DNA of 64,000 nt from Escherichia phage Barry: the sequence record LR880803. One strand, given 5' to 3'. The position numbers and the translations under genes are program-made. Below are positions 3,574-57,079 of the stretch, in pieces (position 1 is the stretch's first letter; each line of letters begins with the position of its first letter). A model generated the notes under the pieces. The model did no database searches, was not told the origin of the DNA, and saw nothing but the letters and a program-made list of their open reading frames with translations.

Positions 3574-3596
3574 GGCTGCTTCGGCGGCCTTTTTTA
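3574..3596 (+). terminator. rho-independent terminator after rIIB
   Basis: hairpin GGCTGC-TTCG-GCGGCC followed by TTTTTTATTT. Confidence 0.6.
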
Positions 3597-3656
3597 TTTG
3601 TATTTTGTGCAGAGTGCTGTATAATTGTTGTCACGATAAACTAAACAGGAGAACCA

Positions 3657-6926: not shown

Positions 6927-7712
6927 ATGGGTATTGTAAAAATCATCAATGGCGATATCTTTGCCGCATTTGATAAAGGTAAGTTTGACATCATTGGTCA
7001 CGGTTGCAACTGTATGAATTTAATGGGTGCAGGTATCGCTGACAAGATTTCTAAACTTTACCCAAAAGCATATGAGACCGATACAGAAGTTTATCTATAT
7101 GCAGATGGTATAGGCCACAAACCCTGTGAAAATTTACTGGGTAATTTCTCTGTAGCACGTTTAAAACAAGGTCGAATAGCTAACCTTTACACTCAGCTTA
7201 AGACTGGTAAAGATGCCCGATACAGTGCTTTAGAATCATCTTTGAAACAGCTTAACAGATACTGTGAAGTTAACCAGTTGAAGAAAGTTGGTCTACCTAT
7301 GATTGGTGCAGGTATCGGTGGGCTAGACCCTCAAGCCGTCACAGTTATCATTAATCAGGTGATGAAGAGTGTAGATGTGTATCTGTATGTCTATGAAGGA
7401 GAGATGTACCACAAGTTACGCTCAGGTTGGAAGAACTACTGTGAACCAGAATACTTTGCAGGTGTAGTAACGTTCACAGACAATACAGTTACCCTCTTCA
7501 GACGAAGAAAAGGTAAGATACATCAAAGTAACCCTCCGGTTGAAAAGATGTCTCTGAGTAACGCTCTAGTTACCCACCTGTCGAAGAGCAATCACAGAAT
7601 TGCAGTAACATTTGGCAGTGATGCAGATACTTATATCTATGCAAGGACTGATGAGGGTATTGAGTTAATCTTCTCTTCACCAGAGCTTACCTTCTTAGAC
7701 GCAAAGAACTAA
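6927..7712 (+). CDS. macro-domain-like protein (putative ADP-ribose binding/processing) with extra C-terminal domain
   Basis: N-terminal INGDIF ... FDIIGHGCNCMNLMGAGIADKI resembles the macro domain GDIT ... DAIVNAAN..LxGGGGV block; motif-level only. Confidence 0.4.
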   Translation: MGIVKIINGDIFAAFDKGKFDIIGHGCNCMNLMGAGIADKISKLYPKAYETDTEVYLYADGIGHKPCENLLGNFSVARLKQGRIANLYTQLKTGKDARYSALESSLKQLNRYCEVNQLKKVGLPMIGAGIGGLDPQAVTVIINQVMKSVDVYLYVYEGEMYHKLRSGWKNYCEPEYFAGVVTFTDNTVTLFRRRKGKIHQSNPPVEKMSLSNALVTHLSKSNHRIAVTFGSDADTYIYARTDEGIELIFSSPELTFLDAKN

Positions 7713-7785
7713 GAAATTTCGTAGTATATTCACAATAGACTAAGCCTTTCTTATCTGGTAAATTTTTCAGGTAAGGAGGGCTTTT

Positions 7786-7966
7786 TCATTTCAGATTTGT
7801 GCAGGTAGAGTTCTGTAGAGAAATCTGTAGAGAGAATTTTAAACTCCAAAGAGAAAATTCATTTTCAAACTGTGCAGGTAATCTCCAAAGAGCTTTTTCA
7901 TTTTCAAAACGTGCAGACCCCGCTCAGGTCGGGCAAGAAAAATCATTTTAGAATTGTGCAGGTAGG
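7786..7966 (+). repeat. four direct copies of a ~24-bp motif (consensus TTTCATTTTCAAAnnGTGCAGGTA) in a 500-bp non-coding region
   Basis: copies near 7789, 7856, 7895 and 7941; CTGTAGAGA also occurs twice between them. Confidence 0.6.
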
Positions 7967-8140
7967 TGGGTGTAGGTGGGGCTGTCGCCATTTCTCACAA
8001 GGCTACCACATCTGAAAATAAAAGTCAACAGAAAAATTTGTAGCGGATTGAAAAATAATTCTTGATTGTAGTTCTGTTTTGTGGTAGTCGCGCGCACCCG
8101 TTTCATTACAATTTTTGCAAAAATATTTTTAAAATTCCTA

Positions 8141-8169
8141 TTGACTCTTTGAGTATGGTTATCTAATAT
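8141..8169 (+). promoter_or_regulatory. sigma70-like promoter upstream of the small-gene array
   Basis: TTGACT - 17 bp - TAATAT. Confidence 0.5.
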
Positions 8170-8219
8170 TTGCATCAGACGGGCAATCAAGCCCACTTCC
8201 TAAACTGGAGAATCTAAAA

Positions 8220-8426
8220 ATGCTTTACAGTCGCGAATTGATGGTTACAACTAACATTAACACAAAGGCAAAACGTTTTTACATGCAAATCTGTGGCGTA
8301 TGGTCCAGAATATCAGAAGCTGACTATTGCAACTATGTAGAAACGGCTATTAATTCGAATTGCTACCTTACAAGAAACACTAAGAAGTTTACAAGACAGA
8401 CAGCAATTTACTACTACGATAAATAA
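8220..8426 (+). CDS. hypothetical small protein
   Basis: 68-aa ORF with leader CTAAACTGGAGAATCTAAAAATG. Confidence 0.4.
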   Translation: MLYSRELMVTTNINTKAKRFYMQICGVWSRISEADYCNYVETAINSNCYLTRNTKKFTRQTAIYYYDK

Positions 8427-8512
8427 AGTACTTTACAAGGGGCTTATAGTTCGATAAAGTAAGCCCCAGATAAAGAGCTTTACTAACTAACCTTAAACTA
8501 GGAGATTCAAAA
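8426..8512 (+). repeat. leader cassette family A, copy 1 (hairpin GGGGCTTA...TAAGCCCC + SD)
   Basis: GTACTTTACAAGGGGCTTATAGTTCGATAAAGTAAGCCCCAGATAAAGAGCTTTAC...GGAGATTCAAAAATG; embedded TTTACA-17-TAAAGT. Confidence 0.7.
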
Positions 8513-8896
8513 ATGGCTTATCGTGCACCGAAATTCATCAACAAAGACAACTTTCGCAAAGTACTGGAGAAGTCACTTGATGAGAATTTTAAAGGCAATA
8601 TTATTGTTGTTCACGCATTCAATTTTAAGTATGATGTAAACGGGAATAGAATCAACCATTACACGGCAACCATGTTAGATGGTACACTATCAAGTGAAAA
8701 AGCCGTACTGAATGCACTAGCAGGACGCGGAAAAGTATTAGTAAGATGCGATAAGCGACGTTATCAGGGTGGCGCATATGGTTATGATGATGCTGTTTAT
8801 CATCTTGAAAATATGGGCTATAAAGTAGAAAAAGCTGGAGTATCGCAAATCATCGGGAGCGATGGTTATGTAACAATCTTCAAAATTAACGAATAA
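8513..8896 (+). CDS. hypothetical protein
   Basis: 127-aa ORF directly after cassette A. Confidence 0.5.
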   Translation: MAYRAPKFINKDNFRKVLEKSLDENFKGNIIVVHAFNFKYDVNGNRINHYTATMLDGTLSSEKAVLNALAGRGKVLVRCDKRRYQGGAYGYDDAVYHLENMGYKVEKAGVSQIIGSDGYVTIFKINE

Positions 8897-8982
8897 AGTA
8901 CTTTACAAGGGGCTTATAGTTCGATAAAGTAAGCCCCAGATAAAGAGCTTTACCACTAAATCCTAAATTGGAGAACTTAAAA
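8896..8982 (+). repeat. leader cassette family A, copy 2
   Basis: near-identical to copy 1. Confidence 0.7.
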
Positions 8983-9276
8983 ATGGCTATTATCAAAAAC
9001 GTTGTAATTGCTGCAAAAACTCGTGATGACGCTCGCGTTATGGCTAAAAAGTTATGCGGGAAAGTGGTTGACAATGGGAAAAAATCTGCTGTAAGATGGG
9101 GCGTAAAGGTTGATAAACAGTTGAAGTTAAAAAATTCACCGATAAACCTTTTTACATGTGTAAACACTATCGGGAAGACAAATGTATACACGAAAAAGGC
9201 ATACATTAGACGCGTAGCATTAACATCCCCCATTCGTACAATGAGAAGTTATGCAAAGCTGAAAAATAACCGATAA
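8983..9276 (+). CDS. hypothetical protein (MAIIKN...)
   Basis: ATG at 8983 follows the cassette SD; track ORF 8968 begins at an in-frame TTG inside the cassette. Confidence 0.5.
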   Translation: MAIIKNVVIAAKTRDDARVMAKKLCGKVVDNGKKSAVRWGVKVDKQLKLKNSPINLFTCVNTIGKTNVYTKKAYIRRVALTSPIRTMRSYAKLKNNR

Positions 9277-13777: not shown

Positions 13778-14026
13778 ATGGCAACTATCCGCGCTACTGT
13801 TAACGAGTTCGGTTTTTCCTCTCTGGATGTTAAATTTGACATTGCAGGCACTGATAACGCCTTTGAAATGGTGAAAGGTCTTATCAGTCAGACCATCAAA
13901 GACTATAATCCTTCTGATGAGTTCTGGAAAGAAACAAAACAGGAAGTTCTCAAAGAGGGTTATTCTTATCACTATTGGGGTGAAAAAATTGTCTCTCTGT
14001 ACTACGACAAAGAAGGCACTAACTAA
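13778..14026 (+). CDS. hypothetical small protein
   Basis: 82-aa ORF after cassette SD; followed by terminator. Confidence 0.5.
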   Translation: MATIRATVNEFGFSSLDVKFDIAGTDNAFEMVKGLISQTIKDYNPSDEFWKETKQEVLKEGYSYHYWGEKIVSLYYDKEGTN

Positions 14027-14066
14027 ACGCCGCAGCGGGGCTAAATAGCCCCAGATACCTTTATAC

Positions 14067-14088
14067 AGCCCCTCACAGGGGCTTTTTT
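14067..14088 (+). terminator. rho-independent terminator closing the small-gene array
   Basis: AGCCCCT-CACA-GGGGC followed by TTTTTT; a second hairpin GGGGCTAAATAGCCCC lies just upstream. Confidence 0.6.
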
Positions 14089-14092
14089 ACGT

Positions 14093-15708
14093 CTATCCAA
14101 TCCTTATACAATCCCTTTCCTCACCTTTTCAGAATCTTATCAGACCTTAAAAGCAATAACTCTATAGTCTACTCTATAGCCTTTTATCAAATCAACTTAA
14201 ATATAAGCCAATAACCCCAGAAAGGGGATGGCCCACTTAAACGCTCTATAAAGCGCTATAACAACCTTATCAATCTAACTTAAGGGATTGCATTAACTCA
14301 CCCTTAAAAGCTCTTTACAGGGCTTTATAGAGGCTTAAAAGAATCTTATAAGGTTATGAGCTTTATTGTCTCGTTAGTATCTTGTGAATAGTTAAACAAT
14401 CCCCTTGATAGTCACTAAAAAGTATGTTATAGGGGCTATAAAGTTACTTCAAAGTTACGTAAAAGGGGCTATAAAGTTACGTAAATGCTAACCCCCTTAA
14501 CATTTTCTTAACAATTTCTTAACAATCCCTACATAGTTATGCTTGTTAGAGACTTGTTAGCCCCTTGTTAAATCTCTGTTAAAATCACGTAAAAGCCTTG
14601 TAAGAGTCTTTGACATAGCCTTAAAAGCTCCTGTAAAGCCCTATAAAGAGGTATCTGTACAGTTGGGTGATAGATACTAGGAAGAGACTTAAAAGAGCTT
14701 ATAAAGAGCTATAGAGAGCTTTTAAGAGGTATGTTTAAAGAATCACTAAGAAAGGAAAGGGAACGATAAGAAAGAAGTAGTGACCATGTTAATAGCTTGT
14801 TAAAAAGATTAAACACTTGTTAGAAACTTGTTAATTATCTTAATTGGTATTGTTACCAATCCCTACAAAATAACTCTTAAAAATTAACTTGTTAGCTCTT
14901 GTTAGTCATCTGTTAAGCCTCTGTAAAGACTATGTATCAACTATTAAGAAACTGTTAAGCCCTTGTTAGTTCTGTTAAGAATCTGTTAAGACCTTTGAAG
15001 AGTTGTTAAGAAGATGTGAGAGCTGTTAAGAGATTGTTAAGGATATTTTAAAATTTTGCAAAGTACTTGTAAGGGAGCTGTTAAGGGCTACCAAGCAGAT
15101 ATACATCCTAATCAGATATTTTTCAGTTCCTTCAAAGACCCTAAAAAATGACTTGATAGTCCTATTTTATAAAAATTTTAAGATTCTGAATAATTACCTA
15201 TACAGTCTTTTAAAAATACAGGTAGAAACAGGCTTATAAGATACCTTGTTAGTACCGTGTTAGACCTTGTGAGATAAGGTCTGTAAAGATATCCCTGTTA
15301 AGTTTGTTAAAACAGTCTATATAGAGGCTTAGTAATACCTAGTGAACACCTATAGAGAGTGTCATAGCTGACATAGAGATTAAGAGGTGTATAGGGGCTT
15401 CTAAGAGGGTATAGAGAGACGGTTAAGGTGATTGTATAGGTTGTTAAGAAGGCTTGTTAGAAGAGTGTTTAGAAGGCTTGTTAGAGGGCTTGTTAGAAGG
15501 GTTATACAGAAGGGCTATTAAGACCACTAGATAGTTACTAAGATACTATATAGTACTATATAACTATATATATAGAGAGTAAGATTAAGAAGGTTGTTAA
15601 GAAGGATAGATATTTTGTTCACATATAATGGTGACCCAGAGGTTGGGACAACCGATAAAATTTTATAAAAATTAAAAAGCCCCCAATTAAGGAGGCTCTT
15701 AAGATATT
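14093..15708. repeat. 1.6-kb ORF-free, AT-rich region packed with degenerate short motifs (CTTAAAAG, TATAAAGAGG, CTTGTTAG/CTGTTAAG, GGCTTGTTAGAAG)
   Basis: no ORF of 60 aa or more on either strand; lies between convergent + and - gene blocks. Confidence 0.6.
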
Positions 15709-16302
15709 TTAAATCAGTGTTTCCAGAACTGCCTTCAGTGATGACTTGGTTGTCTGATAAAAATGAGTAAATCCATTGTTGTTATCGAATATCTGCATCA
15801 TGATATCATCACCCTTGATTGGGTAAACTCGGATATCATAGTGAAAACCATTAAAGACACAAGAGCCATTACAGAATGCACTAAAGTCATCAACTGAGAT
15901 ATACTCTTCATGTCCTGTGATTTTTATACAAATGCCTTTACTTGGTCTCTTAGGGTTGATATCTTCCATCACAGACATACTCTGTCCACCAAGAGATACC
16001 ATAGTGACCACTTTACGGTTCTTCTGTTTAAAGTACATCTTAACTTTCTGCAAAGTGTCTTCATAGAACGGATAAGACCTTTCTACAAAGATTCCTTCAA
16101 GTGGCTCTTTACCATTTTCAACTTCTCTGTTATGCCGTACTGCAAAGATAATTTGTTCGAACCAGTCAAGATTTTCTTCGGAGAGTGCTTCTCGAATATC
16201 ACTCCAGTCAAGGACTAGGTAGTTACCTTCAACTTCTTTTAAGTTATCTTTTTCCATAGCTATCACACCATTATCGTAAAACTTGGTAGGCTGGTACTGC
16301 AA
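15709..16302 (-). CDS. hypothetical protein
   Basis: 197-aa ORF. Confidence 0.5.
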   Translation of the reverse strand: MQYQPTKFYDNGVIAMEKDNLKEVEGNYLVLDWSDIREALSEENLDWFEQIIFAVRHNREVENGKEPLEGIFVERSYPFYEDTLQKVKMYFKQKNRKVVTMVSLGGQSMSVMEDINPKRPSKGICIKITGHEEYISVDDFSAFCNGSCVFNGFHYDIRVYPIKGDDIMMQIFDNNNGFTHFYQTTKSSLKAVLETLI

Positions 16303-17088: not shown

Positions 17089-17592
17089 CTATAGTTGTAG
17101 GTTGCATTCTTTACTTACCTCTTCAAGTTTAATCTCCGAGTCCTTAAGTCGTTTCTTATGAACTCTGAATCTTAGTAGTGAGATAATGATACCAGCTAAA
17201 GGAACAGCATACAAGTACCATACATCATATACCTTTGCAGTAATCTGTGTGATAGTTAAATCTTGAGCTATGTAACTGATTGCTGATACGGCTAGTAATG
17301 TTGCTAAGAAGAAAACCAGTATCATAGCAATATTCAGACAACCTCTGGCATGGTATTCATGCTTAATGCACTTATTCTTCTCTTCAACAACCCTGTTGTA
17401 GTCATTTGTAAAGTCTCTGTAGAAAGCTTTCAAGTATTCTTGAGTGTAGCCTTCAAAGCAACCTGTACCGTACCAATAGTCACCACCAAAGTGTGCTATG
17501 ATACCGGTATCCCCATTTGGTTTGGTTACTCTCAAAGAGGTGTGATGACGAGTATCCTGATAATCTATCTTATATCTTTCTTCGTAAATCAT
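17089..17592 (-). CDS. hypothetical membrane protein
   Basis: 167 aa with central hydrophobic stretch MILVFFLATLLAVSAISYIA. Confidence 0.45.
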   Translation of the reverse strand: MIYEERYKIDYQDTRHHTSLRVTKPNGDTGIIAHFGGDYWYGTGCFEGYTQEYLKAFYRDFTNDYNRVVEEKNKCIKHEYHARGCLNIAMILVFFLATLLAVSAISYIAQDLTITQITAKVYDVWYLYAVPLAGIIISLLRFRVHKKRLKDSEIKLEEVSKECNLQL

Positions 17593-23369: not shown

Positions 23370-24784
23370 ATGAGCGAATTATTTAAACATGCGCACCTTC
23401 ATGCAGGTCGAACTGAAAATGGTGCTGTAAACCATACTTCATCAATGTCTGCTCTAGTAAACTTTTACAAAGCTGCTGGTTCAAGCCGTAGCAATGTAGA
23501 AATCTTACCAGACCTGTTCTACAAAGCTTTGCGTGAGGATGTTGATGTTGCAGTTCGTATTTTACTGCATATGCGAGATGTACGAGAAGGTATGGGTGAG
23601 CGTAAAGCCTTCAGAACTGTTTTGCTTCAAGCAATTGAAGACAAAGTTTTAGAGCCTACACAGGTTCTTCGCATTATGGATAAGATTGCAGAACTTGGTC
23701 GTTTTGATGACTTCAAAATCTTCGTAGGTACTCGTTTCGAGACGGATGCCTTCAAACATTTAGAGGCAGCATTACTAGACCCTGCAACAGCAGGTTTGGC
23801 AGCTAAGTGGTTACCACGAGTCAAACCACGTCATAAGCAGTTTGTAAAACGTTTCTGCAAGTTTGCCAACTTGAGTGAGAAAGAGTACCGCACACTGTTA
23901 TCTGCACTGTCTGATACGGTTGAGCAAAAATCTCTGCTAATGAGTTTGGTAAGATTGACTACAGCAAGATTCCTTCACTCGCTGCTGCACGTTACCAAAA
24001 GCTCTTTAACCGCAAAGATGGAGAACGTTACAAAGCTTACATCGAATCACTCTCAAAGGGTGAGTCTAAGATTAACGCTGGTGCTGTTTATCCATACGAT
24101 GTGATTAAGTCTATCAAGCATGGTAATGCAGATGTTGCCAATGAGCAGTGGAAAGCACTACCAAACTGGATGGCAGAAGGTGAGAACATCTTGTGTATGA
24201 CTGATGTTTCAAGCTCAATGTCTTGGGTGAATCTTGGTTCAATCACTGCCCTTGATATTGGTGTATCACTTGCCTTGTATGTAGCAGAACGCAATACTGG
24301 TTGTTTTAAGAATGAGTTAATGGTTTACTCAACAAACCCTCACTTCATCGAACTGAGCGGTGATTTACGAAACCGTCATCGTCAGGTGATGCGTCATGTT
24401 GAATATGGCTCAACTAACTTACAAGCAGCTTTTGACCGTATTCTTGAGATAGGTAAAAGAAACAACTTGACTCAGAAAGATATGCCAAGTAAGCTTGTCA
24501 TCTTCTCCGATATGGAGTTCAATCAGGTTGATGGAGTTAACGGTCGTACAAACTTTGAAGCAATTCAGAGTAAGTACAAGAAAGCTGGATACGAAATGCC
24601 ACAACTGGTATTCTGGTACTTAGCAAACCGTAATGGTACTTGCGAAGTGTCTGTTAAGGATAACGGTGTAGCAATGGTATCTGGTTTCTCTCCAGCCACT
24701 TTAAAAGCTTTGCTTGGTGGTGAGAAGTTTGACCCAATCAGTGTAATGCTCAAAGCAGTAATGATTGACCGTTACATCTGGTAA
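23370..24784 (+). CDS. vWA-domain protein (MIDAS motif) read as two ORFs (23370..24104 and 24101..24784) because of a frameshift at an A5 run near 23926..23930
   Basis: downstream frame has DVSSS (DxSxS) and reads sensibly back to 23924; upstream ORF tail after ~23930 is low-complexity; one extra A would fuse them (...SDTVEQK-ISANEFGKIDYSK...). Confidence 0.5.
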
Positions 24785-56749: not shown

Positions 56750-57079
56750 TTAATCTGCCAACCTTAAATTAAAATTAACACCAAATTTTTCACATACTTC
56801 CAACATATACTCAAGGGAGACATTACCAGTGAGATGAATTATGTTGGACACACGAGCCTGAGAGATACCACAAATTTTAGCAACTTGCTCTTGAGAAAGA
56901 CCTCTGGATTTAATCTCTCTCTTAAAACGATGTGCAACGAAGTCTCTCATTTCGTCTACATCCATTGGACAAATATAACTCTCCATTTCAGCCTCTCTAT
57001 CAGCCTCCCAATCATCTTGTGGGGCATAAGGGTCAAAAACCTCATTCATCTTTCTTCTTCCGTTTGCGTGAAGTATCAA
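56750..57079 (-). CDS. helix-turn-helix DNA-binding protein (XRE-like)
   Basis: C-terminal LSQEQVAKICGISQARVSNI is a typical HTH. Confidence 0.5.
   Translation of the reverse strand: MILHANGRRKMNEVFDPYAPQDDWEADREAEMESYICPMDVDEMRDFVAHRFKREIKSRGLSQEQVAKICGISQARVSNIIHLTGNVSLEYMLEVCEKFGVNFNLRLAD

Follow-up and report, generated by a model that had tools for sequence, protein, structure and literature searches.

A conserved four-copy direct-repeat array, perhaps a replication origin, ahead of the early small-gene block of Felix O1-like phages

Introduction

What does a non-coding region with four direct repeats do in front of a block of small genes? This question arises for positions 7713-8219 of a 64,000-nucleotide stretch of Escherichia phage Barry (sequence record LR880803), which is called the window in the following. 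An original prediction, made from the letters of the window, had described direct repeats of ~24 bp in this region and had read them as iterons or as binding sites for a DNA-binding protein. Here, the prediction was followed up computationally. The four repeats suggest a cis-acting protein-binding array, to which we give a probability of roughly 0.8, because the array is unique, its sites are asymmetric, bipartite and all in one orientation, selection acts on both sequence and spacing, and the copies have changed in concert. That the array is specifically the replication origin of the phage is a more tentative proposal, which we hold at rather less than even odds.

The window belongs to a Felixounavirus. 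A megablast search with positions 7000-9000 matched 249 phage records, every one of them Felix O1-like, and the closest record was Escherichia phage LinBro with 99.5% identity. As in most records of the genus, the window starts at rIIA. The region 7713-8219 is the exact intergenic gap between the stop codon of a macro-domain gene (7712) and the ATG at 8220, and it contains no conserved open reading frame (ORF), which bears out its description as non-coding. In the LinBro annotations viewed, it is the largest non-coding gap outside the terminal region. No published description of the repeats was found, and the literature on iterons and origins in the Felix O1 group and on Felixounavirus RNA sequencing yielded nothing relevant. 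The Felix O1 genome paper describes temporal regulation as not understood and lists other repeats of at least 24 bp, not these (PMC3185647). The array is a newly described instance of a familiar element type, not a new element type.

Anatomy and Uniqueness of the Repeat Array

All four quoted repeats are present on the plus strand, at 7785-7808, 7858-7880, 7896-7919 and 7942-7964. A repeat search returned them as a single four-copy family of 28 nt, or as three copies of 38 nt, and units aligned on GTGCA (at 7799, 7872, 7911 and 7956) share ~34 nt. The repeats as such were therefore confirmed, whereas the proposed unit of ~24 bp was too short, since the repeated unit reaches about 34-38 nt. The copies are arranged head to tail and share the core TCATTT-N7-GTGCAG; among 64 distinct copies from relatives, TCATTT and GTGCAG form the invariant blocks with 7 nt between them. 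The two halves lie ~13 bp apart from centre to centre, so that both would face the same side of the helix. On a 34-nt weight matrix, repeat 1 (7775-7808, plus strand; core TCATTTCAGATTTGTGCAG at 7786-7804, followed by GTA) scores 45.4 bits, repeat 2 (7848-7881, plus strand; core TCATTTTCAAACTGTGCAG at 7859-7877) 43.9 bits, repeat 3 (7887-7920, plus strand; core TCATTTTCAAAACGTGCAG at 7898-7916, with a 3' flank varying between GACC, GAGA and GATA) 40.1 bits, and repeat 4 (7932-7965, plus strand; core TCATTTTAGAATTGTGCAG at 7943-7961) 36.7 bits. The start-to-start spacing is 73, 39 and 45 bp, with gaps of 49, 15 and 22 bp, and not 40-66 bp as had been stated. The 73-bp interval between repeats 1 and 2 holds a 12-nt tandem duplication on the plus strand (AGAGTTCTGTAG and AGAAATCTGTAG, 7807-7833), within which the word CTGTAGAGA occurs twice (7813-7821 and 7825-7833), exactly as reported before. 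This duplication is kept in Felixounavirus only; the Mooglevirus sequence differs there.

The pattern TYATTT-N7-GTGCA has five matches in the window versus 0.16 expected, a number that was reached by no shuffle; four of them are the array and the fifth is at 3594. With the weight matrix, a scan of the ~86-kb genome (the window plus the remaining 22 kb supplied by LinBro) gave 37-45 bits for the array sites versus 13.8 bits for the next best site and 12.8 bits for the best shuffle. Likewise, the complete genome of phiEa21-4 has no matches other than the four sites (39-46 bits versus 13.3 for the next best). The whole-genome motif check that had been suggested thus found the array to be unique in two complete genomes. 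The word GTGCAGGTA occurs five times versus 0.36 expected, and its two copies outside the array (7027 and 7306) are codons for GAGI motifs of the macro-domain protein.

The match at 3594 was rejected as a fifth site, being a terminator-promoter look-alike that scores 13.8 bits, which is noise level. In the segment around it (3583-3625), TTATTTGTATTTTGTGCAG and a TATAAT (3620) come after the rIIB terminator, a layout that resembles repeat 1 plus its terminator. The segment is a bona fide promoter context that is conserved in Felix-like loci, whereby the promoter is due to the separate TATAAT. The likeness suggests a terminator-promoter junction as the possible ancestor of the array.

Conservation Across Relatives

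At the syntenic position, where absence of the motif from related phages was to count as refuting the original prediction, the array is present in four genera of the Ounavirinae and in a fifth lineage. Four copies in the same order, orientation and place were found in Felixounavirus (Felix O1), Mooglevirus (Mordin/Sf13), Suspvirus (mistaenkt) and Kolesnikvirus (phiEa21-4/Coenus), and the array also occurs in about 30 IMG/VR contigs. The fifth lineage comprises wastewater contigs of 85-88 kb (L037 and L148) with five to six partly degenerate copies in two clusters. The spacing of 73/39/45 is invariant in Felix-like phages despite substitutions in the spacers; it is 75/41/45 in Mooglevirus, 73/39/45 in Suspvirus (mistaenkt) and 37/37/39 in Kolesnikvirus of Erwinia. 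Pairwise identity across genera amounts to 76-88% for the array versus 64-71% for the flanking coding sequences (CDS) and ~35% for the spacer behind copy 4, and in a BLAST search with the 507 bp, Erwinia phages matched the array alone at the DNA level. Judged by these comparisons, strong purifying selection maintains both the sequence and the spacing of the array, and no other non-coding element outside the termini is conserved as well.

The 3' extension of the repeat is specific to the lineage in all copies: it reads GTGCAGGTA (GGTA) in Felix-like phages and GTGCATAG (TAGR) in Kolesnikvirus and L037. This concerted change argues for a co-evolving binder that is probably encoded by the phage itself. 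Single deviations occur as well. Repeat 2 of a VpaE1-like contig reads GTGTAG, and Si3-type phages have three copies, since a mosaic junction falls at copy 3. In the more distant macro-domain loci L085 and L086, no comparable non-coding region was found.

Arrangement of Terminator, Array, AT-Rich DNA and Promoter

On its upstream side the array is joined to the intrinsic terminator of the operon that runs from rIIA to the macro-domain gene (7742-7793, plus strand). The terminator scan placed the hairpin at 7742-7783 and the T-run at 7784-7793, and this T-run doubles as the 5' flank of repeat 1. The homologous place is annotated as a rho-independent terminator in ASO1B and KhF1 and is conserved in the Felix, Moogle and Susp lineages. 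On the downstream side, repeat 4 is followed by a variable spacer (7966-8019), a conserved AT-rich block (8020-8095, plus strand; 76-92% identity across genera), an AT tract (8096-8140, plus strand) and the sigma70-type promoter TTGACT-17-TAATAT (8141-8169, plus strand), which serves the first gene of the small-gene block. This promoter had been named in the original prediction; its position is annotated as a promoter in ASO1B, and equivalents exist in Mordin, phiEa21-4 and L037.

The spacer is conserved in length and, at the low cross-genus identity given above, not in sequence. It occurs as two unrelated alleles, and in each of them AAAGTCAA lies at a distance of 65 nt from the GTGCA of repeat 4. 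The AT-rich block is 65 nt away from copy 4 in Felix-like phages and 55-61 nt in Moogle-, Susp- and VpaE1-like loci. Since the alleles are unrelated and yet equally long, length rather than sequence seems to be constrained, which argues that repeats, AT-rich block and promoter act as one module. An invertible segment was considered as the source of the two alleles and rejected, because the reverse-complement alignment was no better than shuffles. The allele of Felix O1, Moogle and Susp carries a polypyrimidine run on the plus strand, which gives a canonical G-quadruplex motif on the minus strand (GGGGGGAGGGGGAGTAAGAGGGGGAGAGGGG); the allele of the window has a weaker two-tetrad motif on the plus strand.

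The AT-rich block contains a -35-like TTGATT at 8063-8068 without an acceptable -10 element. In all 28 unique loci this TTGAYT lies 41 nt past AAAGTCAA and ~120 nt ahead of the proximal -35, and the intervals between the repeats and from copy 4 to the block also show little variation among these loci. The AT tract is the most AT-rich part of the region (20% GC at 8110-8169) and, by low duplex stability, falls into the 99.4-99.7th percentile of the window. It could be either a promoter tract resembling an UP element or a candidate unwinding region.

Readings of the Array That Were Rejected

A protein-coding function was rejected because strand, frame and length of the ORFs over the repeats change from phage to phage, and because these ORFs are interrupted in the window. 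In most lineages the repeat periods are not multiples of three. Several records carry ORFs that span the array, namely 'ORF14' of Felix O1 (8042-8254), CDS0099-0101 of LinBro (window ~7800-8170), and, on the minus strand, Mordin gp014, Sf13 gp58 and mistaenkt_18; the small ORFs of LinBro, Mordin, Sf13 and mistaenkt are probably spurious gene calls. The repeats are not a promoter class either, as the motif is found at one locus only and no copy has a properly spaced -10-like hexamer. Inspection by eye for sigma70, sigmaE and sigma54 promoters led to the same result: the -10 is absent, the sigmaE-like spacing is 18 instead of 16, and the features are not common to all copies. An array of the type of clustered regularly interspaced short palindromic repeats was also considered and rejected. 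It would call for nearly identical repeats of 28-37 nt with unique spacers of 30-40 nt in between. Here, the repeats are imperfect, the gaps measure 15-49 nt, and the gaps are themselves conserved between genera, with a shared CTCCAAAGAG word. BLAST showed no similarity of the region to plasmids in PLSDB or to E. coli genomes. There are no significant inverted repeats in the region and no operators of inverted half-sites elsewhere in the genome.

Candidate Binders and Host Factors

A motif scan of the region in the window found no consensus sites for DnaA, IHF, Fis, CRP or GATC. The repeats of the window (ACCTGCACA) are three mismatches away from the DnaA box TTWTNCACA; those of Kolesnikvirus (CTATGCACA or TTATGCACG) differ from it by one mismatch each. 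The gene products flanking the array matched no DNA-binding family and only PHROGs of unknown function, and the first downstream gene was rejected as a source of the binder because it is swapped among phages that retain the array.

The sole annotated transcriptional regulator is a 99-aa protein with a helix-turn-helix (HTH) domain of the HTH_3 type, encoded on the minus strand at 56750-57049 of the window and equivalent to bas63_0035. This protein is reported to be the trigger of the DRT7 defence system, and escape mutants with start-codon and frameshift knock-outs are viable (10.64898/2026.04.18.719102). It is present in the Felix, Moogle and Susp lineages and has no homologue in phiEa21-4, which keeps the array. 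Being dispensable in Bas63 and absent from phiEa21-4, it is unlikely to be the universal binder.

The Array as a Possible Replication Origin

If the array were an origin, a sequence-specific DNA-binding protein would occupy the four asymmetric, bipartite sites of the same orientation, and this occupancy would build a nucleoprotein complex of the iteron type that acts on the adjoining AT-rich DNA and promoters. The AT-rich block would then open, aided by transcription from the neighbouring promoter or promoters, and the T7-like primase-helicase would be loaded there. Taking iterons as at least three direct repeats of ~17-22 bp, the four 19-nt bipartite cores at one locus agree with this definition, and the same holds for phiEa21-4. 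The direct repeats adjoin the AT-rich block, the tract of 20% GC and a strong promoter, and in L037 they abut ~200 bp of AT-rich DNA with TTAACM words in 11-bp phase. Plasmid and lambdoid iterons are characteristically arranged head to tail and bound by monomers that contact the DNA through two domains, and iteron origins depend on nearby transcription. The array is like the lambda origin, with its four O-protein sites, and like the origins of the plasmids F, P1, R6K, pSC101 and RK2 in that a few head-to-tail repeats are found at a single locus beside an AT-rich stretch, and its asymmetric site of ~19 bp would fit a monomer with two DNA-contacting domains. In L148 and in the reverse complement of L037 (5616-5733), the TTAACM words occur four times in exact 11-bp phase, 20 bp past the GTGCA repeats and ahead of the AT-rich DNA. 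TTAACM belongs to the word class that borders the terminal repeat of the window; for L037, 766 bp of downstream sequence were covered.

Several points weigh against an origin of this type. The spacing of 37-45 and 73 bp shows no helical phasing and departs from the ~22 bp of classical iterons. A Rep- or O-like initiator gene was recognised neither next to the array nor elsewhere in the genome, and the version in the window is without DnaA boxes. The PHROG-based LinBro annotation lists primase/helicase, polymerase, ligase and exonuclease and no initiator, although many small proteins of unknown function remain, and the sole annotated HTH regulator is a poor candidate on the grounds given above. 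T7-type replisomes usually start at a promoter plus AT-rich DNA, without iterons. The phage encodes a T7-like primase-helicase and a family-A polymerase, and its promoter, possibly one of two in tandem with the AT-rich tract between them, recalls the origins of T7 (phi1.1A/B) and T4 (oriF, oriG). However, those origins need no iteron array, and the best conserved part here is the set of repeats rather than the promoter. The GC skew tracks gene orientation and does not switch at the array. The AT tract doubles as an UP-like promoter tract and is surpassed in instability by 15100-15600, the least stable DNA of the window. The transcription of the array DNA is rather late, as the RT-PCR (reverse transcription-polymerase chain reaction) signal of Felix O1 'ORF14' peaks at 25 min (PMC3185647), which read-through would fit equally well.

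A further point against the array is the existence of a rival candidate for the origin, namely the terminal non-coding region, which carries dozens of phased TGTTAR words. This convergent region covers 1.7 kb (14026-15709 of the window) and contains the direct terminal repeat (14492-15092 by homology). Its words in 11-bp phase comprise three YTAACA at 14497-14519, four inverted TGTTAR at 14544-14577, 15 TGTTAR at 14787-15079, and others up to 15595, and phiEa21-4 shows the same density of TGTTAR words at 17104-17404. They are probably terminase, end or replication sites. These TGTTAR/YTAACA arrays (14492-15600) are like the four repeats in being short direct repeats confined to non-coding DNA, and in L037 both classes are 20 bp apart. 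They differ in that their words are 6-7 nt long, strictly phased at 11 bp, present in dozens of copies and both orientations and located at the borders of the terminal repeat, and they share no sequence with TCATTT-N7-GTGCAG.

Alternative Explanations

Control of transcription explains the array nearly as well as an origin does, and we regard it as a possible, if somewhat doubtful, function. A phage or host protein bound there could form an operator complex that controls the early promoter or promoters 105-340 bp downstream by looping or wrapping. It could also strengthen the terminator as a roadblock or insulator and thereby uncouple expression of the rII-macro operon from that of the terminal early block. 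In agreement with this, the array has the intrinsic terminator on one side and the first early-block promoter on the other, with copy 1 overlapping the T-run, and its distances to the AT-rich block and to the -35 are conserved, as phase-dependent regulation would demand. In Felix O1, the signals of ORFs 16 and 20-22, downstream of the array, are highest at 5 min, and those of the upstream ORFs 1-10 as well as of 'ORF14' at 25 min (PMC3185647), which puts the array at a boundary between temporal classes. However, the sites are far upstream of the promoter without overlapping it and are direct rather than inverted repeats. At least six other promoter cassettes of the small-gene block are without a site, so that the array cannot be a general early-gene switch, and Kolesnikvirus lacks the sole annotated HTH regulator while retaining the array. 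It might also be that the repeats act at the level of RNA, in a read-through transcript or a dedicated non-coding RNA, as protein sites or as regulatory RNA. An RT-PCR product spanning repeats 2-4 (Felix O1 8042-8254) was obtained, with a maximum at 25 min (PMC3185647), but this assay was not strand-specific and its result fits terminator read-through, by which the array DNA is probably transcribed. A structured RNA was rejected, since the best Rfam matches (E=0.23-0.85) were far under the gathering scores, folding was no better than that of shuffles (z-scores of -0.5 and -0.7 on the two strands), and no promoter or terminator delimits an RNA in the array. Overall, a function in RNA is improbable.

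Very improbable, in our view, is a checkpoint of genome entry as in phage T5, in which the right end would enter first and entry or early accessibility would pause at the array until the products of the terminal small genes are made. The array would mark the inner edge of a first-expressed block of ~7 kb. Its binding partner could possibly be a host protein at the membrane, for instance DnaA, or else an early protein or one from the virion. The terminal repeat has its right end at 15092, 7.1-7.3 kb away from the array, a distance of ~8.3% of the 86.5-kb genome, and the T5 signal lies at 7.9% of its genome in a conserved non-coding repeat region (10.1101/866236). Moreover, the genes between array and end are small and have sigma70 promoters, some being maximal at 5 min, and in phiEa21-4 the array is at a similar 7.7-8 kb from the presumed terminal region dense in TGTTAR words. 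The CTATGCACA repeats of Kolesnikvirus are close to the DnaA box, as described above, and TTATGCACA is counted as consensus in T5. The array is thus like the T5 injection-stop region (iss, repeat region 3, left terminal repeat) in having non-coding repeats that are better conserved than the neighbouring genes, in standing ~8% from a genome end, where a terminal block of small early genes has its inner border, and, in some lineages, in its words resembling DnaA boxes (10.1101/866236). The T5 region differs, however, in its ~1 kb of nested inverted repeats and palindromes, its eight paired DnaA boxes, its 10-kb terminal repeat and its demonstrated two-step transfer. Here, four simple direct repeats stand outside a 581-bp repeat, no analogues of A1/A2 were identified, and nothing supports two-step entry in any Felix O1-like phage. 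The repeats of the window are three mismatches from a DnaA box, and the figure of 8% may be a coincidence. Hardly credible is a functionless relic of decayed tandem duplications of a terminator-promoter module. It is true that copy 1 with its flank resembles the rIIB module at 3583-3625 and that the T-runs resemble terminator tails, but the array is conserved above the adjacent coding DNA, its copy number, order and spacing are kept, the copies change in concert within lineages, and none of them has a usable -10 element.

A packaging or terminus signal, that is, a pac or terminase site or the boundary of the direct terminal repeat, is effectively refuted. The direct terminal repeats of Felix-like phages (581 bp in Pr103Blw, PMC8303462; 608 bp in UAB_Phi87, PMC4837284) are comparable in size to the 507-bp gap, and the KhF1 record and several contigs break here. 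However, the 581-bp repeats of Pr103Blw (annotated) and D4, which are identical at both record ends, map to 14492-15092, ~6.5 kb downstream. The KhF1 record (KT184313) opens and closes with a 377-bp segment (window ~7770-8143) whose two copies share no more than 90% identity, suggesting an artefact of assembly from mixed strains, and among the IMG/VR contigs of sample 3300045988 (L020, L031, L040, L055, L059, L067, L068, L073, L078) several end 100-200 bp past the array, at the hypervariable spacer where strains diverge. Most likely, the KhF1 ends and the contig stops are assembly breaks at this spacer in mixed populations and not physical ends.

The reading of the repeats as iterons or binding sites is therefore backed by their uniqueness and by a syntenic conservation above that of the flanking genes, whereas neither an initiator nor a universal regulator was identified.

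Neighbouring Genes and Other Features of the Window

The macro-domain protein upstream of the gap (6927-7712; 261 aa, Pfam Macro) is annotated as 'phosphatase' or Tk.4. The first small gene (8220-8426, plus strand) encodes a 68-aa protein of unknown function (phrog_5293); together with its 5' untranslated region (UTR), in which a Shine-Dalgarno sequence CTAAACTGGAG is located, it covers 8177-8426 on the plus strand. The gene is exchanged for other genes in many relatives, and BLAST coverage ends at ~8183 in many phages. It is the first of a block of early genes on the plus strand that extends to ~14026. Within this block, a promoter-like cassette TTTACA-17-TAAAGT occurs in six near-identical copies (8432, 8902, 9282, 10352, 10479 and 11275), in which a GGGGCTTA/TAAGCCCC hairpin covers the spacer and the -10, and a fixed 5' UTR CCTTAAACTAGGAGATTCAAAAATG likewise in six copies (8493, 9344, 10055, 11046, 12831 and 13758). 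The 57-bp repeats described in the Felix O1 paper match these cassettes, which are likely to serve gene shuffling as recombination linkers. Elsewhere in the window, two overlapping ORFs at 23370-24104 (DUF2828) and 24101-24784 (DUF7788 with a VWA domain) stand in place of a single 471-aa 'RNA-binding protein' CDS in LinBro, which could be a frameshift, a sequencing error or a pseudogene.

Implications

Felix O1-like phages are long-used agents for Salmonella typing and biocontrol, and Bas63 is becoming a genetic model. Unique and easily mutated, the array offers a handle for finding the origin or early switch and for isolating the protein that binds it, and also for engineered phages in which the element is kept or deliberately moved. 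If a checkpoint of genome entry were true, it would mean a functional partition of the Ounavirinae chromosome and a staged genome delivery in a contractile-tailed family that is used in diagnostics and therapy. If the array is the replication origin, an iteron-type origin would stand beside a T7-like replisome that has no recognisable initiator, which would imply an undiscovered family of initiators.

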